Assembly (NCBI GenBank): GCA_046483205.1
Contig: JAWODS010000209.1
Coordinates: 1-55,378, forward strand
From: Armatimonadota bacterium
GTDB lineage: Bacteria; Armatimonadota; Zipacnadia; Zipacnadales; UBA11051
Direction: 5' to 3'
Length of the DNA stretch: 55,378 bases
A program made the translations under genes and the position numbers. The notes beneath the pieces were generated by a model. The model was not told the DNA's origin, did not search any database, and saw nothing but the letters and a program-made list of their open reading frames with translations. Shown piece by piece: positions 15,997 to 25,171 of the stretch (within the stretch, counting starts at the first letter, position 1; each line of letters begins with the position of its first letter).

Positions 15997-16050
15997 GAGG
16001 GCCGCAGTGATTGGCTCAGGTATGCATTGTCGCATGTGGAGGAAATAGCT

Positions 16051-17334
16051 GTGTTTGTTGATGAAGCGACAGTCACCGTACATTCAGGTTCGGGTGGAAA
16101 TGGATGTGTCAGCTTTCGGCGTGAGGCGCATGTGCCTCGCGGCGGTCCTGACGGCGGTTCGGGTGGACGGGGAGGAAGCGTTTACCTGGTTGCCGAGCCG
16201 ATGATGCGGACACTGCTGGACTTCGAGTACAAAAACACCTATTCAGCCGCCGATGGCGCACCCGGAGAAGGCCGGGAAAAGACCGGAGCCGGCGGTGAAG
16301 ATATCGAAATCGGTGTCCCGCCAGGCACCGTGGTGTATGATATGGACACCGGAGAAAAGGTGGCCGATCTGCTGGTCGCAGGAGACAGGCTCCTTGCAGC
16401 ACGCGGCGGTGCGGGCGGACGGGGCAACACCGCCTTCAAGTCCTCCACCCGGCAGGCGCCGCGATTTGCCGAAAAAGGCGAGCCGGGAGAGACCCGACAG
16501 CTTCGACTGGAACTGAAGATTCTCGCCGATGTGGGGATCGTCGGCTTTCCGAATGTTGGCAAGTCAACATTTATCGCCCACGTCAGCGCAGCGAAGCCGA
16601 AGATCGCCAGCTATCCCTTCACCACGCTTGAGCCAAACCTCGGCGTGGTCGAACTCTCGGGCGGGCGAAGAATGGTCATTGCCGACATGCCGGGGCTCAT
16701 CGAGGGAGCCCATGAAGGCACCGGCCTGGGGCACAGGTTCCTCCGCCACGTTGAGCGCACGCATGTGCTGATTCACATGCTGGATGCGGCGGGCGTCGAG
16801 GGGCGAGATCCGCTGCAGGATTTTGAAAAGATCAACCGCGAGCTGGCTCTGCACAATGAGCGCCTCGCATCACTGCCACAGGTCGTGGCTCTGAATAAGA
16901 TTGATCTGCCCGACGGCCGCGACTACGCCCCGATGTATGCACAGGAGCTGGAAGGTGAAGCCCAAAGCGTTGTGCTGACCTCTGCAGCAACTGGTGAAGG
17001 CTGCAGCCAGCTTCTTGAAAAAGTGTGGTCGGTGCTGTCACAGCAGGAGGGGTTCAAAAGTCCTGAAACCGACCGTGAGCCCAGGGAGTTTGAAATCCCT
17101 GAAGCCCTCGAGCGCCCAACGGAGGTCCTGAAGGTCGCCGAGGATATTTACGTGGTACGCGGCACCGCCATAGAAAAGCTGATTTCGCGGCTTGATACCG
17201 AATCGCCTGAAAGTGCCGACTGGCTGCACGAACGGCTGTCGAGGCTTGGGGTTATCAAGCGTCTGAACAGTGCCGGGGCCACCGAGGGCGATACAGTTTT
17301 CCTCGAAAACCTGGAGACCGAATACACCTTCTAA
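16051..17334 (+). CDS. obg: GTPase Obg/CgtA
   Basis: It has a glycine-rich Obg fold (FVDEATVTVHSGSGGNGCVSFRRE), a G domain (GFPNVGKST, DMPGLIEGA, NKID) and a C-terminal OCT domain. GTG at 16051 lies 7 nt after GGAGGA. The ORF track starts at 16027. Confidence 0.92.
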   Translation: MFVDEATVTVHSGSGGNGCVSFRREAHVPRGGPDGGSGGRGGSVYLVAEPMMRTLLDFEYKNTYSAADGAPGEGREKTGAGGEDIEIGVPPGTVVYDMDTGEKVADLLVAGDRLLAARGGAGGRGNTAFKSSTRQAPRFAEKGEPGETRQLRLELKILADVGIVGFPNVGKSTFIAHVSAAKPKIASYPFTTLEPNLGVVELSGGRRMVIADMPGLIEGAHEGTGLGHRFLRHVERTHVLIHMLDAAGVEGRDPLQDFEKINRELALHNERLASLPQVVALNKIDLPDGRDYAPMYAQELEGEAQSVVLTSAATGEGCSQLLEKVWSVLSQQEGFKSPETDREPREFEIPEALERPTEVLKVAEDIYVVRGTAIEKLISRLDTESPESADWLHERLSRLGVIKRLNSAGATEGDTVFLENLETEYTF

Positions 17335-18610: not shown

Positions 18611-19444
18611 GTGTGGAAGGTACCGGGCCTGCTGCTGTTGAAGATAAGAGAGGAAGGCTTGAAGACAGGGGAGGTGATGCCAGTGGCCAGAGACGAGCCA
18701 CCAAAGCACAGCGGCATAATTGGCAGCCTGGTCGCACCGGCCCCCATGATTGTCGCCGCGGTCACCGTCGGCGGGGCCCTTTTGCTGTCACCCTGGGTGC
18801 TGGTGGTGGGCGTACCGGCCTGGGGGCTGGCCGTTGTCGCAACCATTTTTGGCGAGCTCAAGGACCGCGCGCAACAGAGTATCGAACGCGACCGCCAGAT
18901 AGCGGCCCTGCCACCGGAGCTTCAGGAGATGGCGAGGCGTATTGAGCGGACCGTCGAACGGATCCATGAGACTATCGACACCTCTGATGATGACGTACGC
19001 TACATGATGGTGAATCTGCAGACCGAGGTTCGTGAGCTCGCCGACAGCTCGCGGGATTTACTAGGCTCCGCCCGGCACATGCACGAATATCTGCAGGAGC
19101 ATCCCCCGGAGGCGCTTCAGGAGCAGCGCCGCCGGTTGCGAGAGCGACTGAAGCAGGCCGACGATCAGGGTACACGCGACCAACTGCAGGAGACGCTGCA
19201 GGAGCTCGACGAGCAGATTGAGACCCGGGAGCGCATCCGGGCACTCCAGCAACGGACCGAAGCAGCCCTCAGCAACATTGATGCATCGCTCGGCACCGTT
19301 CACGCACACGTCATCCAGCTCTCATCCAATAACATGTCGGGAGTGCCCGCAGAGCGGGGACCGATGCAGGAGCTCGACGAGGTGCGCGGCTCCGTCGCCG
19401 CCCTGCAGGAGGTCATTGGCAGCGAAATGTCGCAGACAGTCTGA
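18611..19444 (+). CDS. hypothetical membrane-anchored coiled-coil protein (2 TM helices plus a charged helical domain of about 190 aa)
   Basis: The TM segments are IIGSLVAPAPMIVAAVTVGGALLL and WVLVVGVPAWGLAVVATIFG. A heptad-like E/R/Q/L-rich sequence follows. The likely true start is GTG at 18683, 8 nt after GGAGG, or ATG at 18677. I recognised no family-defining motif. Confidence 0.6.
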   Translation: MWKVPGLLLLKIREEGLKTGEVMPVARDEPPKHSGIIGSLVAPAPMIVAAVTVGGALLLSPWVLVVGVPAWGLAVVATIFGELKDRAQQSIERDRQIAALPPELQEMARRIERTVERIHETIDTSDDDVRYMMVNLQTEVRELADSSRDLLGSARHMHEYLQEHPPEALQEQRRRLRERLKQADDQGTRDQLQETLQELDEQIETRERIRALQQRTEAALSNIDASLGTVHAHVIQLSSNNMSGVPAERGPMQELDEVRGSVAALQEVIGSEMSQTV

Positions 19445-19585
19445 AGCTGTAGGCCTGTTTTGTGTGATGCAGGGAATCCAGTGAGGGCGGACAATGCAGC
19501 ATTCCGTGTTGGTGACAGGCGGCGTTTGACCGGCCAGTAGCGCTGAAAACAACATCGAAGCACGACTATCAGGGAGGCGTTTGCC

Positions 19586-20353
19586 ATGTGGCGGCGTATA
19601 AAGATGATCTTTCGGTCCATGTTCGGCTGGATGATACGGGGAGCGGAAAACCCCGAAATGATCCTGCGGCAGCACATGGAGGACCTCCGCGACCGGCTGC
19701 CTGAACTCAACAGGCAGGTTGCCGAGGTGATAAAGCTGGAGAAGATGTTGGAGATGCAGCGCGACCGGCTGCAGAAGAAGGTAGAGGACCTGGACAGGCA
19801 GGTCACTGAGGCGGTTAAAATGGGTGAGAATCACAAGGAGGCCGCCAAGACGCTCATCGCCGCTCTTCAAACCGCCCGCCAGGACCTCGAGGAGACAGAG
19901 GCGCAGCTTGAGCAGGCGAAAAAGAACTCCGGACAGACGATGAAGATGCGCGACGCCTATGAGCGGAAGATCAAGCGTGACATCCAGGAAGCGATGCGCC
20001 AGATCTCCCGGGCGAAACGCGCCGAAATCCAGGAAGAAATGTCCTCACTGCTGGCATCCTTTGAAATCGGCGACGAAAGTGACGTCCTCGACCGGATGAC
20101 CGAGCGCATTGATGAAAAAATGGCGCGAGGCGAGGCGCGCACGGAGGTCGCCCAAAGCACGGTGGATGTGCAGATGATGGACATCGAGGCCGCCGCGGTG
20201 GAGACCGAGGCCGAACAGATGTACCGCGAATACCAGCGACAACTTGGCCTTGTCGAAGACGAAGAGCCCACCGACCGGACGATGGAGCCGGTGGAGACCG
20301 ACAGCGAACAACAGGAGCCGCCTGAGACGGAAATAACCACCGAAGAAGGGTAA
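19586..20353 (+). CDS. pspA: PspA/IM30 family protein (phage-shock protein A / Vipp1 / LiaH family; ESCRT-III superfamily)
   Basis: 255 aa. The N-terminus FRSMFGWMIRGAENPEMILRQHMEDLRDRL aligns with E. coli PspA [37 protein letters not shown]. It has a long coiled coil and the conserved late segment DVLDRMTERIDEKMARGEA. SD GGGAGG lies 8 nt upstream. Confidence 0.85.
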   Translation: MWRRIKMIFRSMFGWMIRGAENPEMILRQHMEDLRDRLPELNRQVAEVIKLEKMLEMQRDRLQKKVEDLDRQVTEAVKMGENHKEAAKTLIAALQTARQDLEETEAQLEQAKKNSGQTMKMRDAYERKIKRDIQEAMRQISRAKRAEIQEEMSSLLASFEIGDESDVLDRMTERIDEKMARGEARTEVAQSTVDVQMMDIEAAAVETEAEQMYREYQRQLGLVEDEEPTDRTMEPVETDSEQQEPPETEITTEEG

Positions 20354-20359
20354 GCCACC

Positions 20360-22081
20360 ATGAGCGGGAGGCACGATAGCGATACCCTCGAAAAATGGCC
20401 CGAGTGGGCCCTGAATATCAGGCGCAGCTACCTCTCCGGGGCCGCCTCGGTGTTTCTGCTGCACGGCGTCCGCGACAGTATCTCCTTTCGCGGCCGTTTC
20501 GTGCCGCTCAGTGATTTCCTCAATTACGCCTTCTGCGGGGACAAAACCACCGTGTATTACGATGTTGCACGGGGCATAAGCTTCCCGTCACCGGAGGATG
20601 AAAAGGAATTCAGGCGGTTTGTGGATGTGTACAGCAGGCGCAGCGGGGTGGCTGTGGACCTGAGGGAAAGCTACCGTCCGGAGATTGCCATTCCGCTGCT
20701 GGAGTCATTTCTCACCACCCGCGATGGCGCGGGAGTGATTATTGATTATGTCGAGAAACTGGCGCCGCGCGAAGAGGAGCGGTTCATGAGCTTCAGCCAG
20801 CGCCGGTTGGTCACGACGCTGCAGCGCTGGGGAAGCGATCCTCGGCTGGTGCGGCGCAACAATTTCGTCTTCATGATCGCCGAAGCCCTCACCGAAGTCC
20901 ACGAGGACCTGTATAACGGGACGGGTGGAACGAAGGTCGTCAGCCTGCCCCTGCCGGATTATGACGAGCGGCTGGAGTTCATCAACTTCGCCGTTGAAAG
21001 CGAGGACCTCGGTGGCGACTGTCACCTCGACATCTCACGGGAGGCCCTGGCGACGAATACCGACGGCCTCACCCGGGTGCAGATCGGCCGGCTTATCCAG
21101 CGGGCGGTGGGTGACGGCGAAACCCTCAGCCTCCGCCACACCTCGGAGTACAAGCGGGAGGTCATACAGTCCGAAATTGGTGACCTCGTGGCCTTCATGC
21201 AGCCGGAGCTGGGGCTGGACGCCGTGGCAGGCGTCGAACGGCAAAAGCGGCTGCTGGTGCAGACTGCCGAAGCCTTGCGGGAGGGACGAAAGGATATCGT
21301 TCCGAAGGGCATTCTGCTGGTGGGGCCACCGGGATGTGGAAAGACCTTCACCATGGAGTGTTTCGCCCATGACGCAGGTATCCCGTTTGTGCAGCTCCGC
21401 AATATCTTCAGCAAGTACGTGGGCTCAACGGAGAGCAATCTCGAGCGCGTATTTCACTACCTGAACGCCCTGGCGCCCGTATTCGTGTTCATTGACGAGT
21501 TCGACCAGTCGTACGGCAGGCGCGTCACCAGTGACACGGACAGCGGGGTCACCAGGCGTGTTTTTGGGATGTTCAACTCGTTTCTGGCCGATGAAAGCCA
21601 CCAGGGGCGGATTCTGTTCGGCGCGGCAACCAACAGGCCCGATCTGATCGATCCCTCCACCATGCGGGCCGGGCGCTTTGACATGAAGCTGCCGTTTTTG
21701 CTGCCCGGTGAAGAGGCCCGGAGCGCGATATTGCACGTCAGCATGAAGACGCTGGGAATCGAGCACGAGGGGCTGGACCTGGCCGGGATTCCAGAAAAGA
21801 CGCAGGGATACTCCGGCGCCGACCTCAAGGAGCTGTGTAAAGTGGCCCAGCGCCAGGCGGCCTTCGATGGACGCAGGGAGGTAGGGCTGCAAGACCTGGA
21901 GTTCGCCGTCGAGGACTACATCACCCCGACCGCGTCACGGCGTGATGAAATACGCTACATGGAGCTTCTGGCCGTTACCGCCTGCACCTCGCGCTCGCTT
22001 TTGCCGGAACAATACCTGTCCGCCATTGATTCGGGCACGATTTTTGAGGACCTGCGCGAGCTTGAGACGCTCGTTCGGTAG
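20360..22081 (+). CDS. classical-clade AAA+ ATPase with an uncharacterised N-terminal region of about 300 aa
   Basis: 573 aa. It has Walker A GPPGCGKT (21323-21346), Walker B VFVFIDEFD, sensor-1/SRH ATNRPDLIDPSTMRAGRFD and YSGADLKELC. It has no GAFTGA loop and no C-terminal HTH. It starts 6 nt after the pspA stop. Confidence 0.88.
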   Translation: MSGRHDSDTLEKWPEWALNIRRSYLSGAASVFLLHGVRDSISFRGRFVPLSDFLNYAFCGDKTTVYYDVARGISFPSPEDEKEFRRFVDVYSRRSGVAVDLRESYRPEIAIPLLESFLTTRDGAGVIIDYVEKLAPREEERFMSFSQRRLVTTLQRWGSDPRLVRRNNFVFMIAEALTEVHEDLYNGTGGTKVVSLPLPDYDERLEFINFAVESEDLGGDCHLDISREALATNTDGLTRVQIGRLIQRAVGDGETLSLRHTSEYKREVIQSEIGDLVAFMQPELGLDAVAGVERQKRLLVQTAEALREGRKDIVPKGILLVGPPGCGKTFTMECFAHDAGIPFVQLRNIFSKYVGSTESNLERVFHYLNALAPVFVFIDEFDQSYGRRVTSDTDSGVTRRVFGMFNSFLADESHQGRILFGAATNRPDLIDPSTMRAGRFDMKLPFLLPGEEARSAILHVSMKTLGIEHEGLDLAGIPEKTQGYSGADLKELCKVAQRQAAFDGRREVGLQDLEFAVEDYITPTASRRDEIRYMELLAVTACTSRSLLPEQYLSAIDSGTIFEDLRELETLVR

Positions 22082-22201: not shown

Positions 22202-23008
22202 GTGAAAAGCTTCACAAGGCTCTGGCGCTGGCGCCAGGCTGTATCATATCTGGTCAAACGCGATCTGAAAGTGCGGTACAAAAACTCCGCACTTGGTTTT
22301 TTCTGGTCGTTTTTGAATCCCCTCACCCAGATCATCGTCATGACCGTTGCCTTCCGCTACATCATCCAGATCGACATGCCCAATTATTCTGTGCAGCTCT
22401 TCGTTGTTTTCCTGCCGTGGATGTTTTTCATGCAGACCCTGGGTGATGGGGCAGATTGCGTGGCGCAGGATGCCGCACTCATCAAAAAATTCGCCTTCCC
22501 CCGCATAATACTGCCCATATCAAAGATGCTGTCGAACTTCGTGCACATGCTCTTCGGCTATGTGGTTCTGATTGCGATATTCATTTATCTCGACATTGTT
22601 GTGCATCCCTCGTTTGCACTCGTTCCCGTCTTTTTCGTCATCCAGATGATATTCATGCTCGGGCTGGTGCTGATATTCTCGGTTTTGCGGATGTATTATG
22701 ATGACATCCGCTTCATCCTTGAGGCGCTCCTGCGGCTGTGGTTCTATCTTACGCCGATTGCATACGATATCGAGCATGTGCTCGGTGCGTCGCAAATCGC
22801 GCCGTTTTTGAAAAAGCTGTACATCATGGCAAACCCCCTGACGCCGCTCATGATCGGCTACCGCAAGGCTCTGCTGGAGGGCGGGCAGTGGCCGATGGAG
22901 CAGTTCTGGCAGTATGTCGGGGTGTCGGCGGAGCTGTCGATACTTATCCTGGTAATAGGGCTGCTGATATGGCGGCGGCACAGCTGGCAGTTTCCGGAGC
23001 TTCTGTAA
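22202..23008 (+). CDS. ABC-2 type polysaccharide/O-antigen/teichoic-acid export permease
   Basis: 268 aa with 6 TM segments. The N-terminal VKRDLKVRYKNSALGFFWSFLNPL is the Wzm/TagG signature. Confidence 0.85.
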   Translation: MKSFTRLWRWRQAVSYLVKRDLKVRYKNSALGFFWSFLNPLTQIIVMTVAFRYIIQIDMPNYSVQLFVVFLPWMFFMQTLGDGADCVAQDAALIKKFAFPRIILPISKMLSNFVHMLFGYVVLIAIFIYLDIVVHPSFALVPVFFVIQMIFMLGLVLIFSVLRMYYDDIRFILEALLRLWFYLTPIAYDIEHVLGASQIAPFLKKLYIMANPLTPLMIGYRKALLEGGQWPMEQFWQYVGVSAELSILILVIGLLIWRRHSWQFPELL

Positions 23009-23775
23009 TGCCTGCGAACACACTTGTAGAAGTGGACAATCTGAAAAAGCGCTTCAACGTCCGCCACGAAAAGTGGACGTCGCTGAAACGGTCACTGCTG
23101 CGGCTCTTCCGGCCGTATCCGCACGAGGCATTCTGGGCACTGAAGGGCGTCTCAGTGACCATAAAGGCCGGTGAGCTCATCGGCGTTGTCGGCGTCAACG
23201 GGTCCGGGAAGAGCACACTTCTGCGGATCATCGGCGGCATTTATGTTCCGACAGAGGGCTCCGTCAACATTCACGCCCCGGTCAGCAGCCTCTTCGAGCT
23301 GGAAACCGGCTTCAATCCCCAGTTGACCGGATATGAGAACGTGTTTCTGAGCGGATCCCTGATGGGCTACAGCGGGCGGGAAATCGAGCAGGCGATGCCG
23401 GAAGTCGAAGCAATGTCGGAGCTGGAGGAGTTCCTGGAGATCCCCGTGAAGCTGTATTCATCCGGAATGCGCTTCCGGCTCGGTTTTGGTATCGCCATGT
23501 CCTTCGAACCCCAGATACTGCTGGTGGATGAGGTCCTGGCCGCGGCAGATGAGGCGTTTCAGAGAACCGCATACCGCAAGCTGGCAAGCTATCAGCAGAA
23601 GGGCGCCGCTGTCGTGCTGGTCTCACACGAGCTCGACAAAGTCAGGGAACATTGTGAACGTGTTATCTGGCTCGAAAACGGCCGCATTCGTCGCGATGGG
23701 AAGACCGATGACGTCCTTGACGCGTATTTAAAGGAGATCAACGAGGAGAATACAGGCGGGCAAGACGGTGACTGA
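23008..23775 (+). CDS. ABC transporter ATP-binding protein (Wzt/TagH-like, no C-terminal carbohydrate-binding domain)
   Basis: It has Walker A GVNGSGKST, the signature YSSGMRFRLGF and Walker B ILLVDEVL. The ATG overlaps the permease stop (TAATG). The ORF-track start at 22738 was rejected. Confidence 0.88.
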   Translation: MPANTLVEVDNLKKRFNVRHEKWTSLKRSLLRLFRPYPHEAFWALKGVSVTIKAGELIGVVGVNGSGKSTLLRIIGGIYVPTEGSVNIHAPVSSLFELETGFNPQLTGYENVFLSGSLMGYSGREIEQAMPEVEAMSELEEFLEIPVKLYSSGMRFRLGFGIAMSFEPQILLVDEVLAAADEAFQRTAYRKLASYQQKGAAVVLVSHELDKVREHCERVIWLENGRIRRDGKTDDVLDAYLKEINEENTGGQDGD

Positions 23776-25171
23776 GACACCGGAGCTGCAAAGGGAGAAC
23801 GAAAATGGTTCCCTGCCGGGCCCCGGAGTGCGGTGGCTTTGGGCGATAATCGTTGCGTATCTGCTCCTGGCAGGTGCGGCGGCGTGGATGATGCCTCTGA
23901 CACATAATGACCCGCGGTGGCCCGAACAAACGCGTCAGAAGTTTATTCCCCCGGACGAAGAGGCCCATATTGGATATATCCAGTATCTTATTGACCACCG
24001 CAGATTGCCCGTGTTCGAGGATCCTGACGCAAACTACGAGGCCCATCAACCCCCGGTTTTTTATCTCTCCTGTATCCCTGCCTTTCTGGCCGGGCGTGCG
24101 GTGGGAGAGTTGGTAACACCCTCCGAGACGCTAATGTCCGCCGTATTCTTTGTGCGTCTGTGGTGCGTGCTGATCGGCGCGGGGGTGATATACGCAGTCT
24201 ATCTGCTGGGACTGTATCTTTTTCCGAAAAGCCACCGCCTGGCCCTTGCCGCCGCCGCTTTTGCGGCACTCCTTCCAATGCACTGGGTGAATGTGGCCGG
24301 TGTCACCAATGACGGGCTGTGCGAGCTGATGGCGACGGTGGCGCTCATAGCCGCCTGCAGCCTTTCACAAAAGCCCACGGCACGCAAGGCCATCACCCTG
24401 GGCCTCCTGATCGGCGTCGGCGTGCTGGTGAAGTCCACCATGGTCATCATGTTTGCGGTGGCTGTGTTCGCCATCGGGATGGCGAAAATTGAGGATGACG
24501 GACGTGAGAAGCTGTGGACAATGGCGAAGCTGCTGGGTACGGTATGTGGCATCGCGATACTTGTCTGTGGGTGGTGGCTTCTGCGGAACCAGCTTCTGTA
24601 CGGCGATCCGCTGGTGCAAAAAGCGTTTGTAGAGCTGTTCAGCCAGGATCGCGCCACACCACAATGGTTTTTCGACCGGGGCCTGGCTCCGTCCGGCTAT
24701 TTGATGCTGGTGGTTGTCTCGACGATCTTCAGCTACTGGGGAGTCTTCGGCCAGGCCATCGTGTATATGCCTGCGTGGTATTACCTCATCGGCTTCGCGC
24801 TGTGGCTGCCCATGTTTGTAGGCCTGCTGAAAGTATGGTGGCAGGGGCGAAAACAGGAGGATACGACGCTTTCGGCTCCCTGGGTGCTTTCAGCAGTGAC
24901 GGTGCTTCTGGCAGGGTTTGTGCTCCTGCGGTTTAATATGAGCTTTTTCCAGGCCCAGGCGCGGTACCTGTTTGTGGCGATAGGGCCGATCGCGGGGGTT
25001 TTCGTCGCCGGCTGGTGGCAGATGCTGCCGGGGCCGCGCGAACAGCGGAAACGATACTGGAGGACGGTGATGTGGGTGATCTTCGTTTGCCTCGGCGTCA
25101 TGGCGCTGGTGGCCCTGTGGAACCTCCAGCCCGGCAGCCCCATACGATTCTCGCCGATTACAGGAATGTAA
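23768..25171 (+). CDS. GT-C fold membrane glycosyltransferase (PMT/ArnT-like, GT39/GT83-type)
   Basis: 467 aa with at least 10 TM segments. The first periplasmic-loop motif is PPDEEAHIGYIQY (the DE/DD motif of GT-C enzymes). Its start overlaps the wzt stop by 8 nt. Confidence 0.7.
   Translation: MTETPELQRENENGSLPGPGVRWLWAIIVAYLLLAGAAAWMMPLTHNDPRWPEQTRQKFIPPDEEAHIGYIQYLIDHRRLPVFEDPDANYEAHQPPVFYLSCIPAFLAGRAVGELVTPSETLMSAVFFVRLWCVLIGAGVIYAVYLLGLYLFPKSHRLALAAAAFAALLPMHWVNVAGVTNDGLCELMATVALIAACSLSQKPTARKAITLGLLIGVGVLVKSTMVIMFAVAVFAIGMAKIEDDGREKLWTMAKLLGTVCGIAILVCGWWLLRNQLLYGDPLVQKAFVELFSQDRATPQWFFDRGLAPSGYLMLVVVSTIFSYWGVFGQAIVYMPAWYYLIGFALWLPMFVGLLKVWWQGRKQEDTTLSAPWVLSAVTVLLAGFVLLRFNMSFFQAQARYLFVAIGPIAGVFVAGWWQMLPGPREQRKRYWRTVMWVIFVCLGVMALVALWNLQPGSPIRFSPITGM

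Follow-up and report, generated by a model that had tools for sequence, protein, structure and literature searches.

We analysed a 55,378-nt stretch of DNA from an Armatimonadota genome (GenBank assembly GCA_046483205.1, contig JAWODS010000209.1), which we refer to as the window, and focus here on three co-directional open-reading frames (ORFs) on its + strand: these encode a putatively membrane-anchored helical protein (which we refer to as G1), a PspA/IM30 homologue and a classical AAA ATPase. An earlier note, written from the sequence, had placed the three ORFs at 18611-19444, 19586-20353 and 20360-22081 and proposed them as a candidate bacterial counterpart of the ESCRT-III/Vps4 membrane-remodelling system. 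All three are present on that strand at those positions, and the features we assign to them are as follows.

18683-19444, + strand: G1, putatively membrane-anchored all-helical protein, 253 aa (ribosome-binding site, database entry P0121; the longest ORF starts at 18611)
18713-18853, + strand: two hydrophobic segments of G1, putative transmembrane hairpin, residues 35-53 and 63-81 in 277-aa numbering (Kyte-Doolittle)
19586-20353, + strand: PspA/IM30, ESCRT-III superfamily, 255 aa (PF04012, alignment to solved chains)
20228-20290, + strand: bipartite PspA tail motif EYQRQLGL...RTMEP, residues 215-235, beyond the Pfam core
20360-22081, + strand: two-domain classical AAA+ ATPase, 573 aa (ORF, AlphaFold2 model, Foldseek)
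20360-21214, + strand: D1, inactive AAA-like domain, residues 1-285 (hhalign against D2; no P-loop Lys)
21215-21919, + strand: D2, active classical AAA domain with lid (PF00004, PF17862; invariant motifs)
21323-21346, + strand: Walker A of D2
21413-21424, + strand: pore loop 1 of D2 (KYVG)
21485-21502, + strand: Walker B of D2
21665-21676, + strand: Arg fingers of D2
21920-22078, + strand: conserved C-terminal helical extension of the ATPase, residues 521-573 (model helices)

G1 likely starts at a GTG codon at 18683, which has a GGAGG 9 nt upstream and yields a 253-aa product identical to P0121; the gap to the preceding MFS gene is therefore 83 nt, and not the 12 nt reported earlier. The start codon of pspA also follows a GGAGG, again 9 nt upstream of the ATG, whilst the ATPase begins with an ATG 6 nt after the pspA TAA, as had been noted, with its ribosome-binding site (AAGAAGGG) lying within the final pspA codons. 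No terminator-like sites were found on the + strand between the three genes, and promoter scans gave results at chance level. The reported lack of a sigma-54 −24/−12 element upstream of pspA held, the window as a whole containing 30 matches where 30 are expected by chance. An RNA leader or riboswitch was considered and rejected, as no Rfam family matched anywhere in the window.

The ATPase, PspA and G1

Relatives of the ATPase were collected in a one-genome-per-species scan, in which 564 were confirmed, and the best 80 loci of these 564 form the census used throughout. Residue conservation in the ATPase was counted over 81 family sequences, and a separate alignment comprised 16 family members.

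Pfam places an AAA domain (PF00004) at residues 318-445 of the ATPase and AAA_lid_3 at residues 472-514, and the motifs quoted in the earlier note are all present: GPPGCGKT at 322-329, FIDEFD at 377-382 and ATNRPDLIDPSTMRAGRFD at 423-441. The preceding half of the protein, which had been left as an undefined region, is by Foldseek and hhalign a degenerate AAA domain, D1. In the AlphaFold2 model (pLDDT 87.8, pTM 0.77) residues 30-280 fold into a beta-alpha-beta core and a helical bundle, and the whole model aligns over ~570-620 columns with the D1-D2 tandem of p97, Cdc48, AFG2 (Drg1), Rix7 and NVL (Foldseek, E ~3e-25, TM-score ≤0.61). Profile-profile comparison of D1 with D2 by hhalign gave E = 2e-5 over 142 columns, pairing VIIDY of D1 with the Walker B VFIDE of D2, and lid with lid. 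In the 16-member alignment D1 carries a strand-like 'FLLHG-VRD' in place of the P-loop and 'IIDYV(D/E)K' in place of Walker B; the P-loop lysine is present in D1 of none of the 81 family sequences and DY replaces the Walker B DE. By its sequence, D1 is thus a decayed duplicate AAA domain and dead. It is nonetheless found in all 80 census loci, preceded by an N-terminal LPxWA motif in which P14 and W16 are conserved in 80 of 80. A Pfam search of residues 1-297 at E ≤ 1 returned no match, including to MIT, CDC48_N or CDC48_2.

D2, by contrast to the dead D1, is intact: K328, D379, E380, V354, G355, R436 and R439 are identical in 81 of 81 sequences, with a pore loop of the form [W/Y]-V-G. It is followed by a C-terminal extension modelled as three helices (523-541, 550-558 and 560-572), in which M534, L536, L548 and L568 are invariant in the 16-member alignment. 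D2 scored ~127-129 bits against Cdc48, FtsH and PAN models, compared with 83.9 bits (cut-off 650) against the CdvC model NF041006; the 129 bits against the Cdc48 model TIGR01243 are below family level (cut-off 802.65). Its best sequence matches in the PDB were VAT, p97 and AFG2. Neither Pfam nor NCBIfam detected Sigma54_activat (PF00158), HTH_8 or a GAFTGA loop in the protein, and Pfam gave no match to Vps4_C.

Comparison of the ATPase with the Vps4, Cdc48 and FtsH groups, which the earlier note had recommended, was made with hidden Markov models and Foldseek of the model and returned a Cdc48/p97 tandem fold rather than that of Vps4. Because of this D1-D2 tandem, the lack of MIT, Vps4_C and CDC48_N matches and the lower D2 score for CdvC, we conclude that the ATPase is a Cdc48-type, type-II unfoldase build which has lost its N domain and the activity of D1, and is not of Vps4 type. 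The suggested likeness to Vps4/CdvC is not borne out in architecture or sequence, whilst a functional analogy is reasonable. The earlier statement that the protein is not a PspF-type regulator holds: it belongs to the classical AAA clade and its translocation apparatus is intact, and a PspF-type identity is rejected for want of enhancer-binding protein domains in the ATPase and of a sigma-54 site at pspA.

The second gene encodes a clear PspA/IM30 homologue, as had been claimed: PF04012 scores 81 bits (threshold 33.9), with residues 2-211 covering profile positions 3-209 of 220, and residues 2-208 align to solved Vipp1/PspA chains (6zvr, 8qbr, 7o3w and others; E 8e-7 to 4e-5). No NCBIfam PspA equivalog matches the product, so that we regard it as a divergent member of the family. 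Beyond the Pfam core, PspAs linked to the ATPase in several phyla share a bipartite tail motif, [EA]Y[KQ][RKQ]Q[ML]G followed 10-30 residues on by [KR][TS][LM] (alignment columns ~230-275). Variants include EYKRQMGL, then KTM or KTL, and KTM forms the C-terminal end of the protein in Xanthomonadales-type and some other clades. As a short linear element of the sort that an unfoldase or adaptor recognises, this motif is a candidate for the place at which the ATPase docks on or engages PspA.

G1 has the two hydrophobic N-terminal segments (19-residue Kyte-Doolittle window means of 1.98 and 2.16) and the helical region of ~190 aa that the earlier note had described, and 36 of the 38 family members examined have one or two segments of this kind. 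Its AlphaFold2 model (pLDDT 82) consists entirely of helices, seven in number, with low confidence in the hydrophobic N-terminal region. G1 itself has no significant match in Pfam, NCBIfam or PDB sequences. An exhaustive profile search recovered 287 cluster representatives at E ≤ 1e-3, most of the listed members being 260-310 aa long; those named in their source are all annotated 'hypothetical' and include proteins of the cultured genera Tahibacter, Dokdonella, Lysobacter, Agrilutibacter and Chitinivorax. On sequence comparison G1 is a compact orphan family and the conserved third component of the module.

We considered whether G1 is a divergent Snf7/ESCRT-III protein, an idea drawn from the 'SIG+TM+Snf7' partner of Ravi et al. 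2024 (mSystems, PMC11237479), and rejected it, as all searches were negative. Snf7 and PspA were not among the Pfam families listed (top 25 of 80) for 20 G1 members, nor for ten remote members, and hhalign of G1 with the PspA set gave a probability of 2%. The G1 profile found no ESCRT-III chain among PDB sequences, and Foldseek of the G1 model against the PDB gave a best E of 0.026 and ranked no ESCRT-III chain among its first 50 hits; the method is weak on extended helical proteins. Kinship of G1 with Snf7/PspA is, in short, not detected, and a structural relation may still exist. Identification as an anchor of the LiaI/LiaF, PspB or PspC kind was likewise rejected, as no such Pfam match occurs at E ≤ 1. 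One remote member, P0302, has a weak, sub-threshold match to PF10112 (XpaC-like '5-bromo-4-chloroindolyl phosphate hydrolysis protein'; E = 0.0013, 19 bits), a single case which may be noise.

Conservation of the gene set and its surroundings

Neighbours of the ATPase were detected with iterated profiles seeded by the PspA and G1 of the window and run on six-frame ORFs of the census loci, all neighbouring ORFs were clustered across the 80 loci, and the ATPase tree was built by neighbour-joining. PspA was found in 47 of the 80 loci, always upstream of and co-directional with the ATPase, and G1 in 45, in the same position and orientation except in L060. These two are the sole broadly conserved neighbours, the next-largest neighbour cluster covering 16 loci. 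By context, 40 loci have both PspA and G1, seven PspA only, five G1 only, 14 another partner (which we designate 'U') and 14 none of these. The loci lacking both are strongly concentrated in the ATPase tree: 25 of the 28 'U' and 'none' loci fall in one derived clade, labelled Myxococcota or Deltaproteobacteria, whilst outside it PspA and/or G1 accompanies the ATPase in 51 of 54 loci. The three exceptions (L007, L046 and L069) are truncated by their contigs, with 1,067 nt or less of upstream sequence. Linkage to PspA/G1 is found on every deep branch of the tree and is ancestral and near-universal for the ATPase family outside the one derived clade. The earlier note had named chance adjacency, with the ATPase usually found apart from pspA, as the alternative to its proposal; the census finds conserved linkage and refutes chance adjacency.

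The module occurs in at least five phyla, spanning Armatimonadota, Acidobacteriota, Cyanobacteria-like, Elusimicrobia, Polyangiales and Xanthomonadales-type genomes. The genes run G1-PspA-AAA in Armatimonadota but PspA-G1-AAA in Acidobacteriota and Cyanobacteria-like genomes, and the reading frames often abut or overlap, with the 6-nt gap of the window replaced by 4-nt overlaps in many loci. An orthologous contig whose ATPase shares ~70% identity has the same layout as the window, S15-PNPase-L21-L27-Obg-MFS-G1-PspA-AAA-ABC2-ABC, in independent gene calls that include a PspA_IM30 annotation. The view of the three genes as a tightly coupled and conserved unit is strongly supported by the synteny across at least five phyla, the overlapping or near-abutting frames and the identical layout of the independently called contig. 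A more distant relative of the ATPase, P0118 (31% identity), lies in another context without PspA, and therefore marks the outer edge of the linked ATPase family.

The taxon labels of several metagenome-assembled genome records conflict with their placement in the tree, and are unfit for phyletic counts. Five loci labelled 'Heliobacteriaceae' or 'Heliomicrobium' (L014, L054, L056, L059 and L064) are placed by ATPase and neighbours inside the Acidobacteriota-type clade, and four labelled 'Enterobacterales' or 'Klebsiella pneumoniae' (L026, L035, L050 and L055) inside the Myxococcota-type clade.

The composition of the module varies between lineages. Twelve Acidobacteriota-type loci carry a TonB_C protein of ~345 aa between G1 and the ATPase (e.g. 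L022:4801-5907, L052:4851-5867), giving the order PspA-G1-TonB_C-AAA and a hint that in diderm lineages the module is tied to the outer envelope. The position of G1 is filled by unrelated proteins in some lineages: at L005:867-1613 by a different 248-aa protein with two hydrophobic segments, and in Thermoanaerobaculia (L070:3565-4311, L077:4387-5154) by a soluble, Pro-rich coiled-coil protein of ~250 aa, which we rejected as a divergent G1 (hhalign 14%, no hydrophobic segment). In 14 loci of the derived clade the ATPase lies directly downstream of the unrelated 'U' protein, typically ~420-520 aa long and free of Pfam domains, which is beta-rich at both termini and coiled-coil between them (L015:4451-5926, L016:4447-5937, L036:4629-6002, L042:2156-3655 and ten more). 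The derived Myxococcota-type clade has lost PspA and G1, in what looks like a swap of partners.

The genes around the module in the window include the housekeeping genes for PNPase, L21, L27 and Obg. The gene for the Obg GTPase (16027-17334 in the window), mostly preceded by L21 and L27, is no more than a few kb from the ATPase in 12 of the 80 loci. Obg is upstream in L003, L004 and L082, and downstream in L018, L029, L037-L042, L055, L065 and L068, and this proximity is seen in PspA-linked Armatimonadota and in the PspA-less clade alike. Directly 3′ of the module (22202-25171) are an ABC-2 permease, an ABC ATPase and two PMT_2/DUF2142 multi-pass glycosyltransferase-like proteins, a block kept in the orthologous contig (L082:9867-14132). 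An ABC ATPase is found near the AAA gene in ten of 80 loci, which echoes the transporter association of Ravi et al.

A proposed function and its alternatives

We propose that the three genes encode a conserved module of three components for membrane maintenance, whose ATPase extracts PspA, and possibly G1, a reading to which we give a probability of about one half. PspA, with its ESCRT-III fold, would polymerise on the cytoplasmic face of the membrane, whilst G1 would be held in the membrane by the hydrophobic hairpin at its N-terminus, its helical domain being predicted to face the cytoplasm. G1 probably works as an adaptor or nucleator resident in the membrane, or else as a co-substrate. The ATPase is probably a double-ring hexamer, in which the dead D1 ring would offer a scaffold and a tier for docking and the active D2 ring would thread polypeptide via its [W/Y]-V-G pore loops. 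It most likely pulls subunits of PspA, and possibly G1, from the polymer, perhaps entering at the conserved flexible C-terminal tail of PspA, so that the PspA coat would be turned over, remodelled or recycled at the expense of ATP. Such a role would resemble that of Vps4 for ESCRT-III, performed here by a Cdc48-type tandem AAA. We favour disassembly of PspA because of the conserved linkage, the p97/Cdc48/AFG2 threading fold, the invariant D2 residues and the presence of a full-length PspA with its tail motif. From the same material we infer the roles of 'anchor' for G1 and 'disassemblase' for the ATPase, and we infer hexamer formation, the identity of the substrate, the mode of its engagement and the function of G1.

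Several points weigh against this proposal. The binding and unfolding of PspA by the ATPase are proposed from genes and single-protein models, and Pfam finds no MIT or other known ESCRT-III-binding domain in the ATPase. The tail motif was compared among ATPase-linked PspAs only. One large clade of the same ATPase has neither PspA nor G1, and the obligatory substrate is ambiguous because two kinds of pair occur: G1-ATPase pairs with no adjacent PspA (L002, L003 and L048), and PspA-ATPase pairs with no G1 (L010, Thermoanaerobaculia). The first kind of pair and the PspA-less clade would suit an ATPase that acts as a Cdc48/Msp1/FtsH-like enzyme of membrane-protein extraction or quality control, with G1 as its adaptor or receptor and PspA sealing the bilayer rather than serving as substrate. 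The fold and best sequence matches of the ATPase, which are to Cdc48/VAT/AFG2 and FtsH/PAN and not to Vps4, agree with such an enzyme, as do the ABC and MFS transporters and the TonB_C protein found near the ATPase in subsets of loci. However, PspA is the most frequent neighbour and is coupled directly to the ATPase without G1 in several clades (L010, L070-L079), and the module includes no protease or ubiquitin-like tagging partner; we consider this alternative unlikely.

Tight gene coupling would suit a stoichiometric complex of the PspA-PspF type, in which PspA inhibits the ATPase until membrane stress titrates PspA away and the freed ATPase turns to another target; the PspA of E. coli binds the AAA+ domain of PspF as a negative regulator (PMC7619361). 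Yet the ATPase here has neither a DNA-binding domain nor a sigma-54 interaction loop, it is a threading enzyme of the classical clade whose pore loops are invariant, pspA has no sigma-54 promoter, and the module offers no output target besides G1 and PspA, all of which makes regulation of this kind improbable. Least credible of all is that a housekeeping AAA gene lies beside pspA by chance, or that the ATPase belongs to an Iet-type anti-phage defence system. The housekeeping surroundings of the window (PNPase, L21, L27, Obg) would fit the former, and D2 does score 103 bits against PADLOC IetA (D2 only) and 95.6 bits against NCBIfam IteA, which is weak evidence for the latter. The linkage is, however, kept across phyla and through rearrangements of gene order, the Iet similarity is that of a generic AAA, below the Cdc48, FtsH and PAN scores and far under the 510-bit cut-off, and no IetS protease neighbour occurs in the census loci; we therefore rejected an Iet system.

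The module is a concrete candidate for how bacterial PspA/Vipp1 (ESCRT-III) polymers are taken apart or remodelled. The wider claim, that bacteria possess a true ATP-driven ESCRT-III machine consisting of PspA, G1 as a hitherto unrecognised family of membrane adaptors and a tandem AAA that derives from Cdc48 and has a dead D1, is less likely true than not. Were it true, it would overturn the current statement that bacterial ESCRT-III is without a Vps4-type remodelling ATPase, and the system would be either a case in which a Cdc48-type motor was recruited convergently or a remnant of the passage from Cdc48 to Vps4 that has been proposed for archaea. As homologues of G1, which mark the module, are present in cultured genera, the hypothesis is directly testable by genetics and in vitro reconstitution.

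Comparison with known systems

Among bacterial Psp systems, LiaI-LiaH of Bacillus and PspB/PspC-PspA of Proteobacteria resemble the module in that a small membrane protein, thought to recruit the PspA homologue, is encoded with it. G1 differs from these proteins in its helical domain of ~190 aa and in having no LiaI/LiaF, PspB or PspC domain, and the Lia and Psp systems are without a classical AAA unfoldase, PspF being a transcription activator.

As in ESCRT-III/Vps4 of eukaryotes and Asgard archaea and in CdvA-CdvB-CdvC of Thermoproteota, the gene of an ESCRT-III-superfamily polymer adjoins that of a classical-clade AAA, and with Cdv the module shares a set of three genes for membrane adaptor, polymer and ATPase. 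The conserved C-terminal tail of the polymer subunit is another likeness, the tail of ESCRT-III carrying the MIT-interacting motif (MIM). In contrast, Vps4 and CdvC combine one AAA cassette with an N-terminal MIT domain and Vps4_C, whereas the ATPase here has none of this anatomy and carries a dead D1 ahead of D2; CdvA (a PRC barrel and a coiled coil, with no transmembrane segment) is unrelated to G1.

With the type-II classical AAA unfoldases Cdc48/p97/VAT, AFG2, Rix7/NVL and Pex1/Pex6 the ATPase shares the full-length tandem D1-D2 fold, the best D2 sequence matches, the aromatic-hydrophobic-Gly pore loop and the double Arg finger. In Pex1/Pex6 one ring is catalytically dead and the other active, which is comparable to the dead D1 and active D2 here. 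Unlike the Cdc48 group, the ATPase has no double-psi-barrel N domain and no P-loop in D1, and it is bacterial and linked to PspA.

The haloarchaeal 'Halo_adaptin' loci of Makarova et al. 2024 (PMC10936438) have a classical AAA gene immediately preceded by one for a PspA-like protein, and that ATPase also is without MIT and of Cdc48/VAT ancestry. It differs from the module here in having a VAT-like N domain and a single AAA cassette, in grouping with Vps4, in its winged-helix neighbours and in being archaeal.

The nearest published counterpart is the dyad of Ravi et al. (PMC11237479), who paired PspA with a protein of an inactive AAA and a classical AAA domain, drew the comparison with Snf7/VPS4 and, on the strength of gene neighbourhoods, proposed ATP-dependent membrane remodelling, a function that agrees with our own proposal. 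Their examples include AEY64320.1/AEY64321.1 of Clostridium sp. BNL1100 and the Handelsmanbacteria operon of OGG56892.1, and the partners they describe are membrane-anchored or coiled-coil proteins, one of them called a membrane-anchored 'divergent Snf7'. Popp et al. 2022 do not mention the PspA-AAA pairing, and our literature searches found no experimental study of PspA with an inactive-AAA/AAA protein. In the module as in the dyad, PspA adjoins a two-AAA-domain protein with an inactive N-terminal copy, and ABC transporter genes and a membrane-anchored helical protein are sometimes present. The order here is G1-PspA-AAA rather than the AAA-PspA of Clostridium, the lineage is Armatimonadota, and G1 is without detectable similarity to Snf7 or PspA, unlike the 'divergent Snf7' partner. 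On the identical architecture and context we assign the ATPase of the window to the 'inactive AAA + classical AAA' kind of Ravi et al., and since these authors had already published both the architecture and the ESCRT-III/Vps4 analogy, it is not a new kind of system. The module put forward in the earlier note thus stands as a coupled gene set, whilst its Vps4 anatomy does not and the idea itself had already been published. What is added here beyond Ravi et al. is the census of ancestral linkage, the assignment of the ATPase to a Cdc48-type fold, the delimitation of G1 as a family and the motif in the PspA tail.

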